A stretch of DNA of 62,924 nt, counting the filler. It is 12 parts of 12 records of this genome, joined end to end, with 100 filler letters (N's around TTAATTAATTAA, not from the genome) between each part and the next. Parts side by side here need not be neighbours in the genome. Positions count along the whole stretch, not along the records: positions 5,537 to 9,676 come from SRR15195285_6; 11 more parts are not named here. One strand, written 5' to 3'. Position 1 is the first letter of the stretch; each line of letters opens with the position of its first letter. The notes beneath the pieces were generated by a model, which worked only from the letters and a program-made list of their open reading frames with translations, made no database searches and was not told where the DNA came from. Positions 976 through 14,303 of the stretch are shown piece after piece. The translations under genes and the position numbers were made by a program.

Positions 976-1150
976 GACGATGGGCTGTGATTGAGTGGGT
1001 CACGGAGCGGTGATGTGAGCCCGCACGGCGAGCAGGGGGCTTCTGGAAGGCAGGCAGCGCGGCGAGCAGCGCCGCTGTGGACGGCGGAAGGTCGCACGCC
1101 ACGCCAGGAGCCGGCGCGCCGACGAGCTTTTGCCACAGCGTGAGCGAGCG

Positions 1151-4012
1151 ATGGGCGGCGCGATCTTCAACGGCAATATTAATGGGCGGGCAACGGCGTG
1201 GATGATGGTCGGGATGCTGATCTTCGCGGTGATGTGGGAGTCCTTCACCAGCTACCTCGAGCGGCGCTTCGAGGGCAACAAGGCACACAGCGAAATTCTC
1301 AGTGCGTTCTCCGGCACATTCACGCCACTGTGCTCTGCCCGCTGCACGCCTCGTACCTCCCGTTCCGTCGCATCAACGCGCGCGTGTCTTGTCCGAGCAG
1401 GTAAGGTCTACAAGGAGCTGATGATTCTCGGCTTCATCGCTTTCAACCTGATCATGGGAAAAGAGCTCGGGATCGTCACCATGAACGCCGAGACGCTGCA
1501 CTGCTTCGAGTTTTGCGATTTGCTTGTCTCGATCTGCGTCCTCGTGTATGTCGCAAACTGCGGTATTTCGTCGTCCGTCATGCACATAGCGCAGCGCGAC
1601 TGGGATCGTATCGCGCACACGTCGATCATAACGGTGATCGATGACCTGAATTTCTACCTGGACCGGCTCACGGGCTCGCGATGGAGGCGCTTCAAGCACC
1701 GCTTCGCTTCGGACTGGCGCAACGACGCAGATTTCAAGGTGATGGAGCTGCTGTTCAAGTCTAAGTTCCACCTGCCGCACAATTTCGACTACGTACACTA
1801 CATCAAGCTAGTGTTGCAGGATGTGGTTGTCACTATGGCCAACATCACCACGCTTCACTGGGGCATACTCACGGGCATGTTTGCCTTCTGGTGGGTTGGT
1901 ATGGTGTTGCTGCTGCCGATCCTAGGCCTGGATGCAACGCTTGAAAACAACAACATCTGCATGGTTACTTGTCCTGATGAACAACATCGCCGGCAGCTGG
2001 TGGCCGCTGCTGCAGCTGAGCCCGAGCCATGCTACGCGAAGATCCCAGGAGATACGTGCTCGATGAATATCACGGAGCTGCAACTAGCCTGGGATGATCT
2101 GGTTTCGAACACCTCAGTGGACAGCTACTGGAAGACTTGCGACGAGTGTCTCGCCGCCGGCGAAAATCTTGGACCAGATGACATCAGCAGCGATCTGACG
2201 CTGCGCTGGCTCGTGCTGTACTGCGTTCTTGGATGGCTGCTGGCGGCAACACAGGCCGGCATCGTGTACTCGCTTCATGAGCGCATGAGGCGAATTCTCA
2301 GCATGCATGATATCCACGAGCCACAGAATTTGCCGGAGCTCTTGAACAACCTTTACAAGAATGTGGTGAAGCATGCCTTGGCGGAGGGCGAAGCGCAGGC
2401 GTCCGGTAAGGTAATTGTCGATGACCCGAAGAGCGAAAGGACTGACGTCGTGCTAGCAAAAGAACTGCACCACCAGACCTTGATCAATCTGGACGATGAC
2501 GAGGCCAACAGCTATGAATCCGACACCATCATGGTTTTTTCGAGGGCAGGCAAAACGGCAAACGATGTGCTCTCCGTTCGTGAATATGAATCTTTGATGT
2601 TCGCCACGCAGCTGGTCCAGCTGCTAATCGATTTCTACTTTGGGTTTTACTTCGTGCATATGGTCCAGCGTGTACCAAAGGCCTTCGGTCATGAGCGGCT
2701 GTTCGATGGCGCGACAAAGCGGCAGCTTGTGTTCCACGGCATCATCATGGGTTCCGTGTGGACCGTGTTCAGCTTGCTCATGGTCACAACTAAAAAGATT
2801 TCACTGCTGTACGGCGTTCTCCACCTGTCGGAAGATGGAGTCACGAATGTCTTGAACCACATGGACATGGTCAAGTCCGTGAGAGGGAGGATTAAGAGTA
2901 CGCTCGAGAAGGTGACGCTCGTTCGTGGAGATCCGGATCCGGAGCAAGCGCAGAGACTGCTAGACCGTGCGGTCGGCGGTGAGTTGAAGCTTCTAGGACG
3001 GCTGAATGCATCAAAAGGTAGAATTAGCAAAAAAGAAATTGAGCAGCTGGTGGCAGGTCAAGAAAACTTAACCTTGACGAAAGAGGCCGTTGAGAGCTTC
3101 ATGGACCGTGACGCCTTCCAGCAGATCAGCAGCTTGCCCACAGCGCAGTCTCAAATGAGATTTCGAGTTGCGAATACGGCGACGACGCTGGTCTTTTCGA
3201 ACGGCGCGGAGCCTGCAGCAGACACTGTTGCAGTGGACGACTTCGCCGCATTCTTGGTGCAGTTTGTGACAGACATGATGTTCAAAGCCATGGAGAATGG
3301 GGCCACTGAGGCAGCACTGAACGATGTTCGCCAGGCGCTGCGCAATGTCGCTGTGGTCACAGACGGCATGATTGAACACTCCGAGGGAATAGCGCGAGCA
3401 AAGCTGCTCTTCGTTCTTGTAGATACCGACGGCGGCGGCTCGTTAACTCAAGGCGAGCTGTACAAAATGCTCCGCCGTTTCAAGGTACCGATCACGAAGC
3501 AGCAGTTCAAACCAATATTGCGTCTGATTGACCCGGACCAGAGCAAATCGCTTGAGCTAGACGAATGGCTAAGCTTCATGGTGTCATCAGATGATGATCT
3601 TGAGCACATAATGAGTGACGCGGCCAAGGTCAACCAAATGATCAATGCACGCAAAGGCGCAGATATTTCCACAGTCATGGGCGAAGGCGTCGGGCTATTC
3701 TTTGGTGAAACGGCGGGCAAAATTGTGAAAGGGGGCGTCGAAGTCGCGGAAAAGGTGGCTCAGGAAACAGCTGGAGTCGTTGGAAAAGGGCTGGACACGG
3801 TCGGCCTGGAGAGCGTGAGAAAGGAGCTTCTTTATGATGAGGAGGAGGAGGCTGCGAGGCAACGGCGCAGCGATGCGCTCGGCGCCTCACCTGGAAGCTC
3901 GGCGTTTGGAAGCCCGACGTCAGGCAATCGCCGAAAGAAGGGGTCGGAGTTCGTAAATCCAATGTCGGAGTCACTCATTCCCGACGACGAGGATAGTGGT
4001 GGGGAGGATTGA
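1151..4012 (+). CDS. MLO-family multi-pass membrane protein with C-terminal EF-hand pair; one intron (1302-1400)
   Basis: Removing the GTGCGT...CAG intron gives ILSKVYKELMILGFIAFNL (cf. MLO KEELMLLGFISLL). HNFDYVHYIKLVLQDVVVTMANITTLHW matches MLO FDFHKYI..SLEDDF..VVGIS..LW. Several TM segments. EF loops DTDGGGSLTQGE and DPDQSKSLELDE. Confidence 0.8.
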   Translation: MGGAIFNGNINGRATAWMMVGMLIFAVMWESFTSYLERRFEGNKAHSEILSAFSGTFTPLCSARCTPRTSRSVASTRACLVRAGKVYKELMILGFIAFNLIMGKELGIVTMNAETLHCFEFCDLLVSICVLVYVANCGISSSVMHIAQRDWDRIAHTSIITVIDDLNFYLDRLTGSRWRRFKHRFASDWRNDADFKVMELLFKSKFHLPHNFDYVHYIKLVLQDVVVTMANITTLHWGILTGMFAFWWVGMVLLLPILGLDATLENNNICMVTCPDEQHRRQLVAAAAAEPEPCYAKIPGDTCSMNITELQLAWDDLVSNTSVDSYWKTCDECLAAGENLGPDDISSDLTLRWLVLYCVLGWLLAATQAGIVYSLHERMRRILSMHDIHEPQNLPELLNNLYKNVVKHALAEGEAQASGKVIVDDPKSERTDVVLAKELHHQTLINLDDDEANSYESDTIMVFSRAGKTANDVLSVREYESLMFATQLVQLLIDFYFGFYFVHMVQRVPKAFGHERLFDGATKRQLVFHGIIMGSVWTVFSLLMVTTKKISLLYGVLHLSEDGVTNVLNHMDMVKSVRGRIKSTLEKVTLVRGDPDPEQAQRLLDRAVGGELKLLGRLNASKGRISKKEIEQLVAGQENLTLTKEAVESFMDRDAFQQISSLPTAQSQMRFRVANTATTLVFSNGAEPAADTVAVDDFAAFLVQFVTDMMFKAMENGATEAALNDVRQALRNVAVVTDGMIEHSEGIARAKLLFVLVDTDGGGSLTQGELYKMLRRFKVPITKQQFKPILRLIDPDQSKSLELDEWLSFMVSSDDDLEHIMSDAAKVNQMINARKGADISTVMGEGVGLFFGETAGKIVKGGVEVAEKVAQETAGVVGKGLDTVGLESVRKELLYDEEEEAARQRRSDALGASPGSSAFGSPTSGNRRKKGSEFVNPMSESLIPDDEDSGGED

Positions 4013-5436: not shown

Positions 5437-5536
5437 NNNNNNNNNNNNNNNNNNNNNNNNNNNNNNNNNNNNNNNNNNNNTTAATTAATTAANNNNNNNN
5501 NNNNNNNNNNNNNNNNNNNNNNNNNNNNNNNNNNNN
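5437..5536. other. Artificial contig-joining linker. Identical linkers at 9677-9776, 14687-14786, 19217-19316, 23058-23157, 33124-33223, 36451-36550, 42234-42333, 47214-47313, 50874-50973, 55310-55409
   Basis: 44 N + TTAATTAATTAA (stops in all six frames) + 44 N, identical at all eleven sites. Genes are cut off at many of them. Confidence 0.97.
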
Positions 5537-5557
5537 ACCTTAGCGACACTTAAAAAT

Positions 5558-5631
5558 CCGGTGTGGGCACGCGCCACGCGCGCGCGGTCAGCGCGCGCGC
5601 GCGCCGGCGCGCGCGCGCACGCACACACCGG
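5558..5631. repeat. CG-alternating palindrome / hairpin
   Basis: Perfect 26-bp palindrome at 5593-5618 centred on CCGG, flanked by inverted CCGGTGTG (5558-5565) and CACACCGG (5624-5631). Confidence 0.75.
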
Positions 5632-5883
5632 CAGCGGCGTCGGATGGAGCTGATGGAGGCACAGATGCCCCTGGTTCTGTAGGTAGGCCAGCTTAGCGGG
5701 TGCACCCTGGCGCCGCCGAATTAGGCAGCAGGCGGAGGACTGAGGCGCAGGGTGGGGGGCATAGACCACGCCGAAACAGGCAGGCGAATCCGGCGTGGAG
5801 GGTGATCGCAGCAGGTTAGTGACTTCCGCAACGACGGAGCCTGGTGGTTCCTTGGTGCCGGTGGTGTTACTTGGTGCCCCACC

Positions 5884-8502
5884 ATGTCGGAGGAAGGCGC
5901 GCTGCGGGCTGCGCAGTCACTCACCACGGCACACCGCGCCCACAATCGTTTAGGAACGAGCGTGGGATCGTTTCGAGGAGAGCTCCGAGTAGACATGCCA
6001 GTCAAGAAGTTCACGTGCGCACAGCTGCTGGGCTTGGAAAGTGTAAGGAAGGACGCCAAACTCCCACGTGCTCGCTACAAAGGGACGTGTGCCCGTATTG
6101 CTGGTACCAGTACTGGGCGGCTCAAGCCAGGGCGAACTGGCAACCTTGTCGGAGCATGTGCCAATGATGCCAAAATCGATTGGGGTGATCTTCAGGACAG
6201 GCCAGATTGGTTCGAGACCATGTGCTCAGTGTGCTTCGCAGCATTCAAGCTGCAAACGTACGATTACAAGTCTGAGGGGAGTGTCAGAGCAGCACGCAAG
6301 CGAATGCGCTCTCTGCAGGCGTGCACGCGTTTGGAAGATTTTCACAACCTCTATCGCGCTGCTAGTACGCGTGAAGCTTCAGGCCATACATCGAGTTCGA
6401 TTCCAAAATTCCAAATCTCAGCGTCTGTGGCTGCCCCGACCAAACGTCCAGTAGCAACCTCACCGATCGGACAACGGCCTGCGAAGCAGAAAAAGCTCGA
6501 TCACCAAGCTGCTGCAACGCTGGCCACGTTGCAACAGACTCAGGGTGGATGTCATACGCAACCAACTGTACACGCATCGGCTCCGCAACTAGCAGCGAGT
6601 GCGAAGACCAGCCAGCAGGTGCCTACACAACTATTGGCACAAGAAGATACGACGGTCGAGAGACAAACTCCAAGGTTCACGGAGGACGAATCGAGGGGCA
6701 CACAAATCGAGTCGCGATGCACCCAGCCTGATTTCCAAAAGACCTTGCCAGTAGCGGCCGTGGCTAGTGTCCTGAGCATCAAATCACAGGAGAAACGGTC
6801 AGAACCAGGGGCGACTCGACAACTAGAAGCGGGAACAGTCGCGCCGAATCATCAGCCATGTGTTACTAACTCAGAGAAGGCAACCATCGAGACCTTTCCA
6901 CACGGTACAGTGTTAAGATGCACCGATTGTACCCATGGTACGCATTTGTTTAACGCCATAGCTGGTGAGGCAACCATGTTGTGTCCAAGGGACTGCGGCC
7001 GTAAGTTTGAGGCACGTTACCTTACGGTGCAGGAAATGGCGGAGACACAACGCCAACTCGTTTCCGAACGCGAGTTGATGCAAAGTGCGTTTGCTCAAGC
7101 ACTGAAAAGCCAACGGCGTGAGAACGAGAAACTACAACAACAGCTACATTTGCTTCATCAAAAACGCGGTGATGAAATCATTGACAGTGGTCATGTAGAG
7201 CACTCCGTACCAGCTAGCAGTATATCCAATGAGCAACACGGGTTAAAATCAGTACAGCATCACAAGTTCGCTGAGAAGGAGTGCCGGCAGCTATATGCCT
7301 ACTTTCAGCAGACGTGGAAACCTGGAAACCAGATGTACGTCAACAGCAATCTTTACCCGGGATTCTCTCGGTATAACAAAATACAGGCGGACGCTGCCAC
7401 GCGGGTACGGCACCAAAAGTTTCACACAGTTTTGCTCACATCGGAGGACGATACCACTGCCGAGACCCCAGGTTTGTACAGCAGGTTCAAAGAGGACCTG
7501 CCACGTAAGGCAACTGAAAATTGGGAAGCCTTGGAGCGCGAAGTTCTTAAAGTTGCCGCTGCACGCCGCGGAGACCATCACTCCGATTCCGTCCATAGCT
7601 ACAGTGATCTAGACGGTTCCTACACCGGATCTGCCATCTCGTTTCTATCTGGCAACTGGCATAGGTCTTGCGCAGCGACTGACGGAAATACCCTGAAGGT
7701 TACGTTCTTCTGCACACGGGACAGAATCCTCTGCGGCCATTTTTTGAAGCAAGACTCGAAGGCAGTTGCTCATTTCAGGTGGCACATCGACAACGACCGT
7801 GAGGAAGACGAACACGGCAACGTGTACAGCAACGAAGGTCACTGGGATGCAGTTGTTACGGTCGTCGTGGTGCTTGGGAACGAGGGTACTCCTTCAGGCA
7901 TTGCATTTCAGGCAACGCAGCCGGAGCCTGATCCAGCGGAGGAAGAACTGGAACGCTTGGAGCGCAGCGACCCTGGGGATATGGATATCACGCAGCTACA
8001 GGCTCTGTATGAGCACCTCATCGGCCGCGTGGCAACCGGCGCATGGGGCAAGGACGAGTCTGGGCTGCGTCTGAAGATTGCCGAGGCACATCGCAAACAC
8101 CTTCTCTTTTGTTGCTATCCTAACTTCATGGACGAGTGCGTTGACGTAGCACTGAAGAGCCAAGGAGCAAAGGGCGTCGAGATCAAAGAAAACGGCGTGA
8201 CCGTAGCCCTGGCGACAGTGGTGGAGAATAGGCTGCTGTGCATTTGCGTTCGCGACGATTTCCAAAAGTCTCGTTATGGTACGTTTCTGCTGTCCAAGTG
8301 CTGCACGCTTATCCCTGGCGACGAAATGGTGGTCGAAGCTGACTTGGTCTTCGAGGAGTGGTACAGACAGCGGGGGTTCGAGCGTGCCGGCAGCAAGGCG
8401 ACGGAAACATACGTGCTGATGAGAGCTGGCAAACGCGCGCTACTGGATGCTTGCAAGCAGCTAACGACGCGTCGACGTCGGCCTCGAATTGAGAGCTTCT
8501 AG
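5884..8502 (+). CDS. Intronless 872-aa multidomain protein: Cys-rich N-terminus, coiled coil, 2OG-Fe(II) dioxygenase-like domain (permuted) and C-terminal GNAT acetyltransferase
   Basis: Uninterrupted ORF. DSBH motifs HFRWHIDND..VVTVVVVL and GSAISFLSGNWHRS..TLKVTFF. GNAT motif A ICVRDDFQKSRYGTFLL and motif B EEWYRQRGF. CxxC pairs CSVC and CTDC..CPRDC. Confidence 0.7.
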   Translation: MSEEGALRAAQSLTTAHRAHNRLGTSVGSFRGELRVDMPVKKFTCAQLLGLESVRKDAKLPRARYKGTCARIAGTSTGRLKPGRTGNLVGACANDAKIDWGDLQDRPDWFETMCSVCFAAFKLQTYDYKSEGSVRAARKRMRSLQACTRLEDFHNLYRAASTREASGHTSSSIPKFQISASVAAPTKRPVATSPIGQRPAKQKKLDHQAAATLATLQQTQGGCHTQPTVHASAPQLAASAKTSQQVPTQLLAQEDTTVERQTPRFTEDESRGTQIESRCTQPDFQKTLPVAAVASVLSIKSQEKRSEPGATRQLEAGTVAPNHQPCVTNSEKATIETFPHGTVLRCTDCTHGTHLFNAIAGEATMLCPRDCGRKFEARYLTVQEMAETQRQLVSERELMQSAFAQALKSQRRENEKLQQQLHLLHQKRGDEIIDSGHVEHSVPASSISNEQHGLKSVQHHKFAEKECRQLYAYFQQTWKPGNQMYVNSNLYPGFSRYNKIQADAATRVRHQKFHTVLLTSEDDTTAETPGLYSRFKEDLPRKATENWEALEREVLKVAAARRGDHHSDSVHSYSDLDGSYTGSAISFLSGNWHRSCAATDGNTLKVTFFCTRDRILCGHFLKQDSKAVAHFRWHIDNDREEDEHGNVYSNEGHWDAVVTVVVVLGNEGTPSGIAFQATQPEPDPAEEELERLERSDPGDMDITQLQALYEHLIGRVATGAWGKDESGLRLKIAEAHRKHLLFCCYPNFMDECVDVALKSQGAKGVEIKENGVTVALATVVENRLLCICVRDDFQKSRYGTFLLSKCCTLIPGDEMVVEADLVFEEWYRQRGFERAGSKATETYVLMRAGKRALLDACKQLTTRRRRPRIESF

Positions 8503-8793
8503 TGCGTAATTGGAGGAGGTTGTTCTGCGGATGCATCGCTGGGCATATCGCGCTAATCAACCACAGAGTCGCCACTCTGCAGTGGCCAATGAATCGCTGG
8601 TGTTGTTCAACTCGGAATTCTTGATATTCTTGCAGTCCTAATTTTTTCACTTGGCACAATAGATGTGGTATCATCACATAGTTAGTACTAGCTCCTGTCA
8701 CAGTGGACTGCGGACGCCCACTCATACACCAGAAAGTCATTGTCGTAGAGCTTCCGTCTCTGCTGGTATTGTATCTTATTTTTTTCGCCAAAG

Positions 8794-9234
8794 ATGTCAG
8801 CCCTGAGTACAAACAGCGAGCAAAGACGCATGTCCACGATGCAGGACAACTCGGTAGCTCTCGCTGATAGCGTTGCTGAGCGGTACGCCAGTGTGATGGA
8901 CAGCCTGATCACTGACTGCAGCCGGCTCGAAGATCGTGTCGCTGAGCTCGAGAACAGTCTGCATGCGGCCGTGCAAGACCGCGACGCAGCCGCAGCAGAG
9001 CGAGACACCGCCCAACGTGAGCGCGACCAGGCGCTGCAAGATCTCGAGGATATCGAGGGCACGTTCGGTGACGAAGAGTTGCGCGAGTACTGCGAAGTCT
9101 GCGATCGCTTCTGGCATCGCGACTATGTGACCTGGTTTGCGCACCCGTTCGAAACTGAGGATGGGAGACACGTTAACAGTGCGTGTGGTGGCTGCTTTGG
9201 CCAGGTGCCTGTTGGACACGGGCCAGTTGCGTAA
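8794..9234 (+). CDS. Small coiled-coil protein with C-terminal CxxC...CxxC zinc-ribbon-like motif (start may be 8830 or 8839)
   Basis: Heptad region SRLEDRVAELENSLHAAVQDRDAAAAERD followed by CEVCDRFW...CGGC. No intron. Confidence 0.55.
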   Translation: MSALSTNSEQRRMSTMQDNSVALADSVAERYASVMDSLITDCSRLEDRVAELENSLHAAVQDRDAAAAERDTAQRERDQALQDLEDIEGTFGDEELREYCEVCDRFWHRDYVTWFAHPFETEDGRHVNSACGGCFGQVPVGHGPVA

Positions 9235-9776
9235 AAGTTTCAAATGAAGCTGCACAATCGACTGTCCGTCTCGAACCTCACAGCAGCATGCTGTGCCAGA
9301 ACCGGCAGTCACCTGCGCACGCTTCTATGTGGTTGCATTCCAGACCATCTTCTGTCAAACTGTGAGCACTCGCTTATGCTGACATCCCGCTTTTCGAGAA
9401 CGTGTCACTTCACCGTCGCACCATGCAATGCTGTGGAAGTTTTTCCGCTGAGTCCCAGGTGCGAGGAAATTTAGTGACAGTAATTTGCCCAGCTGCAACA
9501 AGAAAGTGCCAGTACCGCAGCCACACCACCAACACCAACACCGTTCTTGCCCCGATCTGGTAGGTACAACAGATTGCAGTCAGACGGTGATCACAGCATC
9601 TCCAATGGTTGGGAATACAGCACTCTACACTCGACCACTTTTGAAGTCAAAATATATAGAGGTGATGTGAAAAAGTNNNNNNNNNNNNNNNNNNNNNNNN
9701 NNNNNNNNNNNNNNNNNNNNTTAATTAATTAANNNNNNNNNNNNNNNNNNNNNNNNNNNNNNNNNNNNNNNNNNNN

Positions 9777-10234: not shown

Positions 10235-13200
10235 TTACACTCCACTGCGTGAGCGTGTGCGCGATAGCTGGCGCGACAACCCCAAGCCTACATCCTCCGT
10301 AGCCGCATGCGACATAGTAGGCGACGGCTCAGACACACCTGCACCAGTTTCCGCGGGCGCTGCTGCTGCTGCACCGGCGACGGAAGCTGAAGGAGAGATG
10401 ACTGTGGTTGGTGGACGATCTACCTGTCTGGCCAGCTGTTCCAGGCGTGCTTGCTCGCGAGACACGCGCTGCACCAGCGTGCTCGCGCGCTCAATCAGTG
10501 TCGATGCTGTCGCTTGGAACTCGGCGACAGCCCTCTCATCCTTCAATGCAGCGCCGCTGCTCAGGTCTTTGCCAAGGACAGACAGCTCCAACAGCAAATC
10601 CTCTGTTTCAATCTGATCGCAGCCATTCTCACCAGTGGAAGCCGCCATGGCCCACTTGATGGCGGCCATCCACCTCTGTTTAGGTGGCGACAAATCTTTG
10701 GGCACTACCCGAGCCGCCGCCGCGCGGGCCGGTGAGGACGGTGACGACGGGTGCTTCAATTTTGCCACATCTTTTGGGGTCACTTCTTCTGTTTTTTCAA
10801 CATCAGTGTCACTGTCATCTGCATCGTCCTCGCTGTCGCTGCTGCTTTCGCTACCACTTCCGATGTCGCTTGTGTCGGGGCTGCTACCTTGGTCACTGCC
10901 ACTCGAACCACAGTCGCTTTTGTTTTCTTCGTCATCAGAGCCAGTATTCAGGTTCTGTTTCAGCACCATTCGCCTGTACATGCCGTCTTTGATCGCCATC
11001 AGCGACTTGTGGTCTCCGCTCTGAGCTACCACGCCATCCTCCATACAGACGATGTGGGTGGAATTCTGCAGCACCACGAGTCGGTGCGCGATCTGCACTG
11101 TAGTCCTCCCTTCCATAAGCGTTTCAATAGCCGTTGCTACCAGCTCTTGCGTGTCAGCATCGAGACTGGCAGTTATCTCATCTAGAATCAAGATGCGTGG
11201 GTTGCGTAAAAGAGCCCTGGTTATAGTAATGATTTGCTTTTGTCCTGGTGATAGGTCACTGCAGTCAGTTCGCCACCGCTCCGGCTGCTCCATAATGACC
11301 TTGTATGCGTTGGTGCGCTTGCAAGCTGCCTCGATCTCCTCTTGGGTTGGGTCTTCATTGCGACCCTCAGCCGATCCCGCGTATCCGTACACTAGATTGG
11401 CGCGGATGTCGCCGTCAATGATGTATGGAGTTTGCTGAACGACTGCCATCTGCCGCCTCAGCCACGGAGGGTTGTAATCTCTGATATCACGGCCATCGAT
11501 CAAAACTTGTCCACTTTGGCAGTCGTACATGCGGAGTAAAATCCTCAGCGCAGTAGACTTCCCACATCCAGCGGACCCGACGATACCTAGTGACTCACCG
11601 GCGTCCAATTTGAAGCTGAGACCACGGAGAACTTTTTTGTTTTTGTCACGCGGGTACGCAAAGTGAATGTCTTTGAACTCTATCACTCCGTTGAGCGGCT
11701 TTGTCGGTGTCAGTCCGACATTCTCATCGATTCCCTGCGTTGGTGTACGGTCCAGCATCTCGATTATACGTGTTGCTGGGGCCAGCACGCGAGCAAGCCC
11801 AGGCAGCTCACGCTGAAAGAACGACTTTACACCGTGCACCAAATTTTCAGATAATGAGACAGCAATGGCGACGTCGCTGGCGCTCATCTTATTCTGCAGC
11901 ACCAGTTGTGATCCAAAGTAGAGACCCAAGTATGTGCCAATCTGATAGGAAAACCGAAAGATTGGATTGAGCAGGTCGAGAAGCAAATCTGACTGCTGGT
12001 GAAGGTCGTCCTGCACTTCGTTGGACGCTGAGAATTCTTCAACAGTCCGAAGCTCTCGCCCGAATGATCTAACGACTTGCATGCTCTCTGAATCATGAGT
12101 TACGCTTTCCATTCCGAGGCTGTCATCATTTCTCATGCGCCCTCGCTGCTGGCGCTTTGTCGATTTTTTAAACCAATTTATAACAAGCGCTTGGACCACG
12201 TTGGTCACGGGCAGTATGAATGCCATGAGCTTAAGCAGGTCTGGACTCTGCTCGTACGCCACAATAAAGTTCGACACAAGCCCCACGGCACGCTTGATGA
12301 CATACTGTGGCTGATAAACCAGGTCATGCTCGATGTCTTCGGCGTCTCGCAAGCACCTGTTCGGACTGTCGACTGAGTCGAAGTACCTGAGATCCTGGCT
12401 GATGATCGCCTTGCCCACCATTCGTTTCAGAGTCTGGCTGACAGCATCAGCACCTTTGCGGGTAAAGCGATTGCTCAGATTGTCGATGAACATCGTGATG
12501 AACTGTATGTAAATGACAGACCAAAAACTACTGTAGACCTGCTCATGGTCGAGCTGCTGCAGCGATCGGATCATATCGGACTTGAATTTGAGAGTCAAAG
12601 GTGTTACTGCGCCAGAAAGAGTGTTGAAAACCGTACCTGCGAACAGAGTTGGTGCGCTGGAACTTGCCAGTCGTAGCAGCACCCCAAGTTTGCCGTACTG
12701 CTCTTTCTTCTTGGCCCACATTGCGTTGACTGCCGTCACAAGCTCGCCACGAGTGGGCCCTACTTTCAGAGCAGGGCACCATTTGCTGCGATCGATTAGT
12801 CCGTAATAATCTAAGTGTCTCACTGCAAATGCACGTGGCCCTTTGCCGTATTTGACGCGTACCACCCGCTTGCGCTCCCTCCGTAGCAGGCGCAGTAAAT
12901 CCTTGATGGCTTTGCCGTCTCGAAATTTTTCGTGCTCGGCATGAGTTGAGTCGTTCATTTTCGTGACGCATTCGCTGACCTCGCGCTGCAGCGATTTCCA
13001 CGTCAGCTCGGTTGCTTCCAGCAGTAACGCATCCACTTCGTCTCGCTCACGTCGCAGCAAGGCGACTTTTTCCTCTAGTGAGACAGCTGATTTGCCTAGC
13101 GCAATGTCCTTCCTCTGAAGCTCTGCGGCATTCTGTGTGATTTCAACATCGCGGAAGCGCTTATGCGAAGCCTCCTTCCTCCAAGTATGAATCCGTTTCG

Positions 13201-14303
13201 CCTCGGTCCATTTGAGCTCGTTTACTTCGGTCTGCACCGGGGACACTTGTGTCTCAACTGTAGATAGCAACGGATAAGAATTCACATCCGACCCAGAAGA
13301 CTTCCCCAGTTTGGTGAGCTTCTTTTTCAGCTGCCGAGCTATGACGTCAGGGTCATCACCTTTCATCTTGTCAGCGTTCTCTCCACTCACCACCTTTCCG
13401 TCGTCGCTCCGCTGCGGCAAGATTGCCACTGTAATTTGCCGTGGGCCGAATGCAATTGTCCACTCGTGCAGACTGATTTGCCCGTCGCCGTCACGGTCGA
13501 TGCTGGCTACTAGCGCTGCGATGTCGTCAGGACTCATATCCAGCCCCACATCTGCCAGGCCGAGCGCAAAATTGTCAGCCGAAATGGCCCCCTCTCCACT
13601 GCGATCCATCATCTGGAAGGCCTGCGATATTTTTGCGCCCTTCTTAGTAAGCTGGTCCTTCAGCTGCGCAGTCAACTTTGCCACCAGTATCTGCACGCTG
13701 TTGGATCGAACTAGCCGCTGTGGCGGCAAATCCGGCTGCGTGCTGCCGTCCGTACTGACCATCTCCTGGGTACTGTGCTCCCCGCTCTCCCGCTCGTCTT
13801 CATCCAACGTGTCCTCAACCAGCAGCAGACGTGAACTGTCCACTTCAAACAGCCGCTGAAGCTCTTCTCTCAGCACTTCCTCGCCGTAACCGCCCACATT
13901 CAAAGTGAACGTCAGCCGGACTGTACCTTGGCCACTGGCTCCTAGCTTGTTCAGGTAGTACTTCGTGCGCTCAAGCTTCACCACTTCGCGTAGCTTGATG
14001 CTTGCTCGCTGAACCTCGCGACGCTTCCACTCAAGCTCCTCGTGGTTAACGCGCCTGGTCTTGAAGAACGCATCATATATCAGAAATAGACCCACTGGTG
14101 TGCCGAAGCAGGCTACGAGGGCTGGTCCGTGTTTGGCCACTACGGACGCGTTCGGCAGCACGCGCTCCATCAAACACTTAGCTGGATGAACGCTCCCGCG
14201 TGATCTGATCAACACCTCGAATCAGCAGACGAACCGCTTCCCTTCACGGTAGTCAAGCCGCACCTGTATGAAGCGCCGTCATACTGCCGCCGGCCCGGAG
14301 CAT
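10235..14303 (-). CDS. ABCB-type half transporter (TMD-NBD) with N-terminal EF-hand pair; probable intron 14263-14182
   Basis: Walker A GSAGCGKST, Q-loop VVQQTP, signature LSPGQKQ, Walker B ILILDE, D-loop ASLD, H-loop IAHRL, IEFKDIHFAYP. EF loops DRSGEGAISADN and DRDGDGQISLHE. A short first exon splices in frame. Confidence 0.88.

Follow-up and report, generated by a model that had tools for sequence, protein, structure and literature searches.

Can the catalytic barrel of an Fe(II)/2-oxoglutarate (2OG) oxygenase be encoded with its second half first? These enzymes form a very large and closely studied class, and the order of their metal ligands, an HxD motif followed by a distal His, is used both to define and to find them. 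The question is raised by a gene at positions 5884..8502 (+ strand) of the window, a stretch of 62,924 nucleotides made of joined contigs, in which the gene sits on a 4140-base piece (5537-9676). It consists of an open reading frame (ORF) of 872 amino acids plus a stop codon, for which an intron-free reading suffices; an identical 872-residue protein is found in an EukProt record, and a near-identical copy of 873 residues in a Logan contig. We propose, with a probability of roughly two in three, that the central part of this protein is a circularly permuted jelly-roll similar to those of the prolyl-4-hydroxylase (P4H)-like enzymes, that its metal triad is kept, and that it is fused to a GNAT-like domain.

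The proposal concerns two conserved blocks on the + strand and the short segment between them. Block A (residues 570-609, 7591..7710) would contribute strands V-VIII and contains H593 (7660-7662) and K605 (7696-7698), while block B (residues 615-678, 7726..7917) would contribute strands I-IV and contains H634 (7783-7785) and D636 (7789-7791), with a 9-residue acidic insertion after the HxD motif and ahead of strand III. They are separated by the linker CTRDR (residues 610-614, 7711..7725), which would lead from strand VIII to strand I. A preliminary description of region 7591-7914, which corresponds to residues 570-677 and whose letters we recover as quoted, had placed H593 at 7660 and H634-x-D636 at 7783-7791 and had noted that the distal-His block precedes the HxD block with only CTRDR in between; translation of the ORF bears out each of these statements. 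The chain order, H593 before H634-x-D636, is thus not the HxD-then-distal-His order of PF13640. In our interpretation, residues from about 570 to 678 would fold as a PF13640-type double-stranded beta-helix (DSBH) with its second half first, such that strands (V)VI-VIII with His593 and Lys605 precede strands I-IV with His634-x-Asp636, and the five-residue hairpin joins the two halves. This would amount to a circular permutation of the barrel with the cut in the IV-V hairpin, and the permuted domain would lie between a variable, probably coiled-coil N-terminus and the C-terminal GNAT-like domain. As its metal triad is kept, such a domain would most likely remain able to bind Fe(II) and 2OG and to hydroxylate a protein substrate. 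The bare H/D motifs do not go beyond chance, since there are nine His between residues 556 and 690, and HxD/E occurs there three times, at 566, 634 and 653; it is the match at the level of profiles, described below, that does go beyond it.

The junction between the two blocks is genuine. A word-index search found one relative, and an exhaustive phmmer search over 1.84 billion representatives returned 11 proteins, namely eight close relatives or fragments and three repeat proteins, with no distant homologs. Cluster look-ups added further full-length sequences, drawn from ENA, JGI/IMG, Logan and a single NCBI record, and the 12 aligned sequences are 74-92% identical across residues 456-704. All 11 aligned homologs share the block order and the junction. 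In addition, positions 7711-7725 are bridged by contigs from three other studies: an RNA contig of run X2 spans 7303-7826, a DNA contig of run X3 spans 7452-7772, and DNA contigs of run X5 span 7513-7765 and 7422-7843, with no joints reported in any of them. A misassembly at the junction, which the preliminary description had named as a way in which its reading could fail, is ruled out because eleven homologs keep the same block order and independent contigs run across it. We also considered an in-frame mini-intron at 7699-7725, which was rejected since these residues are conserved at the protein level in all homologs. The window holds no second copy of the gene.

The gene is part of a small family with several copies, which has so far been seen only in marine protist data and is present in RNA libraries of marine samples. 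One member, P0024, is titled “MRP8 family protein [bacterium]” at NCBI and lies on a 9.8-kb contig; its bacterial label is doubtful, and probably reflects a binning error, since other family members come from protist or marine eukaryote data. The most diverged branch (P0006, P0035 and P0039) retains 61% identity in the C-terminal part and includes 745-residue members with another N-terminus. P0006 itself has 187 residues and starts directly after the jelly-roll region, and may be a fragment or a stand-alone form of the GNAT domain. The three repeat proteins returned by phmmer (P0010, P0012 and P0013; two TPR proteins and one with a 52-residue tandem repeat) are artefacts rather than homologs. 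They attain E-values from 1e-4 to 1e-11 by summing many weak repeat matches, and the TPR motif EEVLKL..GxHHPDT is similar to EREVLKVAAARRGDHHSDS in the query protein, which makes them a trap for automated homolog lists.

Since the default filters of hmmscan conceal matches weaker than about E 0.1, we built profiles of our own. The broad profile comprises 99 bacterial PF13640-type (P4H-like) domains and has 153 match columns. Its sources were YbiX orthologs and PF13640 matches in Pseudomonadota genomes (129 of 301 genomes gave one), of which the 30 best loci and 40 chosen lower-scoring loci were taken. A profile search of the protein collection with one of the alignments listed at least 120 proteins of the same two bacterial subfamilies, and these were left out of the analysis. 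Further profiles represent AlkB, PF03171 and the collagen-type P4H homologs. Against residues 556-690 the broad profile scores 10.0 bits (P 3.2e-5), a value reached by none of 5000 shuffles, 466 natural windows of this stretch or 1323 bacterial-flank windows, and other family members score 11.1-13.2 bits. AlkB and PF03171, which are true DSBH sister families, score no more than about 4 bits in the median on the same profile, so that the query family stands nearer to PF13640 than either of these does.

The order of the halves was examined by rearranging the columns of this profile while leaving the query in its natural order (HMMER --max, Z=1, residues 556-690), and by hhalign runs in which the family alignment served as query and the template was canonical or permuted. 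With the canonical order, HMMER gives 11.7 bits (best single alignment 6.8, P 1.4e-5) and hhalign a probability of 27.5% (P 6.5e-4, 31 columns). With the C-half placed before the N-half, the HMMER score is 20.1 bits (single alignment 19.6, P 3e-8) and the hhalign probability 92.8% (P 3.9e-7, 76 columns). Profiles made of one half in duplicate score 11.4 bits for the N-half (single alignment 8.9, P 1.7e-5; hhalign 27.5%) and 4.2 bits for the C-half (single alignment 3.6, P 0.0027). The expectation stated at the outset, that swapped halves should score far better, is therefore borne out by a gain of 8.4 bits in HMMER and by the rise of the hhalign probability. The permuted profile gives one continuous alignment over residues 581-667 that runs gap-free through the join and the CTRDR linker, and the canonical profile aligns one half at a time only. 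All eight family members tested favour the permuted profile, with 20.1-23.8 bits. None of 3000 shuffles attains the observed permuted score, and among 2168 natural-sequence windows of 135 residues the maximum for the permuted profile is 5.7 bits. The permuted order also outscores the canonical one in each of seven profile subsets, by 4.3-8.8 bits.

Controls of canonical architecture behave in the opposite way. The canonical order scores higher in 24 of 29 AlkB sequences, 19 of 30 PF03171 sequences and all 30 members of a left-out SM-20-like subfamily, and the hhalign probability drops on the permuted template from 89.7% to 37.5% for AlkB and from 88.6% to 36.4% for PF03171, as does the hhalign score of the collagen-type P4H homologs (from 136 to 80). 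When the point of rotation is scanned along the profile, the score stays at 11.6-11.7 bits when the cut falls at the canonical ends and peaks with 20.1-20.4 bits at columns 96-106. These columns lie in the strand IV/V region, where the preliminary description had proposed the cut. A rotated profile that wins on the query, canonical relatives that show the reverse and a genuine junction are together what a circular permutant should display.

Splitting the profile at the strand IV/V boundary locates the signal further. Block B (here residues 613-680) matches the N-half with 10.9 bits (P 2e-5), a level that no sequence among 2000 shuffles or 2999 natural windows attains, and does so in all 12 members (10.5-13.4 bits). 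Block A (560-612) matches the C-half with 3.7 bits, a score reached by 19 of 2000 shuffled sequences and by 16 of 3823 natural windows; the part of it that aligns is residues 581-609. The alignment to the permuted profile covers strands VI-VIII and I-III and ends at residue 667. Both HMMER and hhalign place the pair H634/D636 at the HxD columns and H593 at the column of the distal His; these three residues and K605 are invariant in all 12 sequences. Residues downstream of 680 match neither half of the profile. Upstream, three of four N-terminal P4H profiles hint, weakly, at this side of the barrel rather than the downstream side (0.4-2.9 bits, equalled by 25-71 of 1000 shuffles); among these, FAEKECRQLYAYF aligns weakly to the LSeeECdaLi helix of the collagen-type P4H homologs (0.4-1.1 bits, equalled by 71 of 1000 shuffles). 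Residues 456-569 (7249..7590, +), with which the conserved module begins at S456 and which include FAEKECRQLYAYF, may contain the helper elements found N-terminally in a P4H-like domain. If these upstream hints are real, the rearrangement would be cyclic for the barrel only.

Among the alternatives, the one that survives best, and which we nevertheless consider unlikely, is a resemblance due to chance or convergence, in which residues 556-690 would be a domain particular to this lineage, rich in His and in beta structure, whose fold is a different or unknown one and whose match to P4H-like profiles reflects no homology. Several observations weigh against a permuted oxygenase barrel, and a number of them favour this alternative. 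The hmmscan runs with default filters (E<=10) on the whole protein and on its halves returned no 2OG family, and neither Pfam, NCBIfam nor PHROGs gave an oxygenase for the whole protein or any piece at E<=10. The PF13640 gathering score of 27 bits was not reached, and that family gave no match at E<=10 for the whole protein, residues 470-872 or the pieces. Here the preliminary description was half right: standard hidden Markov models do miss the domain, but the matches to separate halves that it had also allowed for did not appear, as nothing was reported for residues 456-700. A reading of NWHRSC...FFCTRD as a SET domain was dropped, with no Pfam SET match at E<=10. Sequence searches of the PDB yielded nothing beyond chance matches, to streptavidin variants (E 0.28-1.8) and to coiled coils, the ESM Atlas returned no usable match for residues 470-700, and AlphaFold2 models of residues 456-872 (2 sequences) and 456-704 (12 sequences) were unusable, with mean predicted local distance difference test (pLDDT) values of 32.0 and 33.4, respectively.

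Other points against the permuted barrel lie in the profile comparisons themselves. The narrow profiles (collagen-type P4H, AlkB, PF03171, YbiX alone and SM-20-like alone) are at chance level on the query; their power for real relatives is weak, as they give true cross-family members only about -2 to 13 bits. A separate hhalign run on the natural order gave a probability of 7.8%. Over the 12 members, block A scores 3.7-7.5 bits with the C-half and 3.2-7.8 bits with the N-half, and in four of them the N-half match is as good as the C-half match. Strand IV (SGIAF) and strand V lie outside the alignment, and their assignments are tentative readings of the sequence. The Arg column aligns to T603, with K605 two residues later, so the preliminary description, which had put a Lys in the 2OG-binding Arg/Lys position, was inexact on this point; K605 may lie on the same strand face as the Arg column. 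Because all homologs are at least 74% identical, the conservation of the ligands carries little weight. The region is rich in His and Asp, with its three HxD/E motifs, and no distant homolog was found among the 1.84 billion representatives. Finally, the sequence scored by the profiles is also the one that suggested the hypothesis, and a match at P 3e-8 could still arise by chance over a scan of very many windows. Against chance resemblance, however, stand the agreement of two methods on the permuted profile, family scores far above the natural maximum of 5.7 bits and beyond every shuffle, a rotation optimum at a place where cutting a hairpin is structurally sensible, and ligand residues that fall on ligand columns.

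If the barrel is permuted, it could also have ceased to be an enzyme and serve the GNAT-like domain as a binding or scaffold module. This would fit the position of the basic residue outside the Arg column and the strong divergence of the domain, which scores about 20 bits where bacterial members of the family that the profile excludes reach 59-74 bits; the family is moreover young and too conserved for selection on the ligands to be tested. The invariance of H593, H634, D636 and K605, each on a functional column or two residues from one, argues the other way, and we regard this alternative as quite improbable. Least probable is an oxygenase in canonical order (H566-x-D568, distal H630 and 2OG-binding R639, followed by extra strands) or a tandem of two N-half units: block A does match the N-half with 5.9 bits through H566-S-D568 (equalled by 18 of 2000 shuffles and none of 3823 natural windows) and the spacing G618..S625..H630..R639, read against the consensus, is similar to the C-half motif, but block B gives no alignment to the C-half in any of the 12 members, the best single canonical alignment and the duplicated N-half fall short of the permuted score (the loss being about 9 bits), H566 is replaced by Tyr in two of 12 members, and an alignment of residues 546-612 with 613-682 gives no sign of an internal repeat, its score being attained by 1824 of 2000 shuffles.

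The permuted domain is embedded in a larger protein, all of it on the + strand. The N-terminal half (residues 1-455, 5884..7248) differs among the homologs and contains a low-complexity stretch, Cys pairs at 345-373 and a Q/E-rich stretch that is probably a coiled coil. A library match to Zn_ribbon_8 is not significant (E 0.82), and a PDB profile search found coiled-coil proteins only (E 1-9). Following block B, an acidic linker (residues 679-766, 7918..8181) matches neither DSBH half and is probably helical, as judged from the sequence and from the low-confidence models. The GNAT-like acetyltransferase domain (residues 767-841, 8182..8406) is supported by the one signal that recurs in the library searches, namely matches to PF13673 and PF13508 in P0001, P0003 and P0006 at E 0.002-0.03, which remain below cut-off (15-20 bits against curated cut-offs of 20.7-27 bits), and by ESM Atlas features: for P0025, the ten best family-bearing matches share a family or clan, and the family rows listed are GNAT, with a best value of 0.92. 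The basic tail RRRRPR (residues 863-868, 8470..8487), read off the sequence, is possibly a nuclear localisation signal.

On the same contig, a second ORF at 8794-9234 (+) encodes 146 residues, of which the N-terminal half is coiled-coil-like and the tail is rich in Cys and His (CEVCDRFWH...CGGC), and its product could be a small zinc-binding protein. The neighbouring contigs of the window carry two long intron-free ORFs, which from their translations encode a 960-residue membrane protein with an EF-hand-like stretch (1130-4012, +) and a 1326-residue ABC-transporter-like protein with an EF-hand-like insert (10235-14215, -). Contigs are separated by spacers of the form N44-TTAATTAATTAA-N44 at 11 joins (5437-5536, 9677-9776 and nine more); these spacers place stop codons in all six frames, and pieces that adjoin here may be unlinked in the genome.

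What would such a protein mean for the oxygenases at large? In the literature covered, which consisted of titles and abstract openings and did not extend to subscription journals, there was no mention of a circularly permuted 2OG oxygenase or DSBH. Should a structure confirm the arrangement, it would be a topology so far unreported for 2OG oxygenases. Somewhat short of even odds, and thus tentatively, we suggest an active Fe(II)/2OG oxygenase, fused to a GNAT domain, whose catalytic jelly-roll is circularly permuted at the level of the gene; it could be the first natural case of its kind. The barrel would then tolerate being opened at the IV-V hairpin as well as having strand VIII run directly into strand I, which would be useful for enzyme engineering. 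It would also follow that library hidden Markov models systematically miss permuted forms, and searches with rotated profiles could uncover more of them. The GNAT-like fusion is a hint that two protein-modifying activities may be coupled in one enzyme, in a lineage without a cultured model, and a single polypeptide of an uncultured marine protist might both hydroxylate and acetylate proteins, perhaps nuclear ones. Cooperation between the two domains is conceivable on this view.

With respect to known GNAT domains (PF13508, PF13673 and PF00583), the acetyl-CoA motif Q/R-x-x-G-x-G/A reads QKSRYG in the query, with Arg in place of the first Gly. We know of no described GNAT domain fused to a P4H-like domain, and no search for one was made.

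The closest known systems for the barrel are the P4H-like hydroxylases of PF13640, which include the PKHD-type YbiX of E. coli, SM-20/EGLN-related proteins and the bacterial homologs of collagen-type P4H. As in these, both barrel halves are recognisable at the profile level, the metal ligands lie on the His/Asp/His columns, and the G-x4-F-x-S-x3-H motif of the consensus has the same spacing; a helix resembling LSeeECdaLi upstream is a further, weak likeness to P4H. The query differs from PF13640 in that its halves are swapped with a five-residue join, and it yields no Pfam match, the cut-off being 27 bits. Its basic residue is a Lys, two positions past the Arg column, and it has the 9-residue acidic insertion between HxD and strand III. 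In the same chain it is joined to a GNAT-like domain and to a long N-terminal part that varies. The rearrangement itself has a parallel in natural circular permutants among beta-sandwich or jelly-roll proteins, for example concanavalin A relative to other legume lectins. The lectin permutants are not metalloenzymes, and the permutation of concanavalin A arises post-translationally, whereas that of the query would be encoded in the gene. In both cases, however, the barrel would be kept, the new termini would lie in a hairpin, and the old termini would be joined by a short loop.

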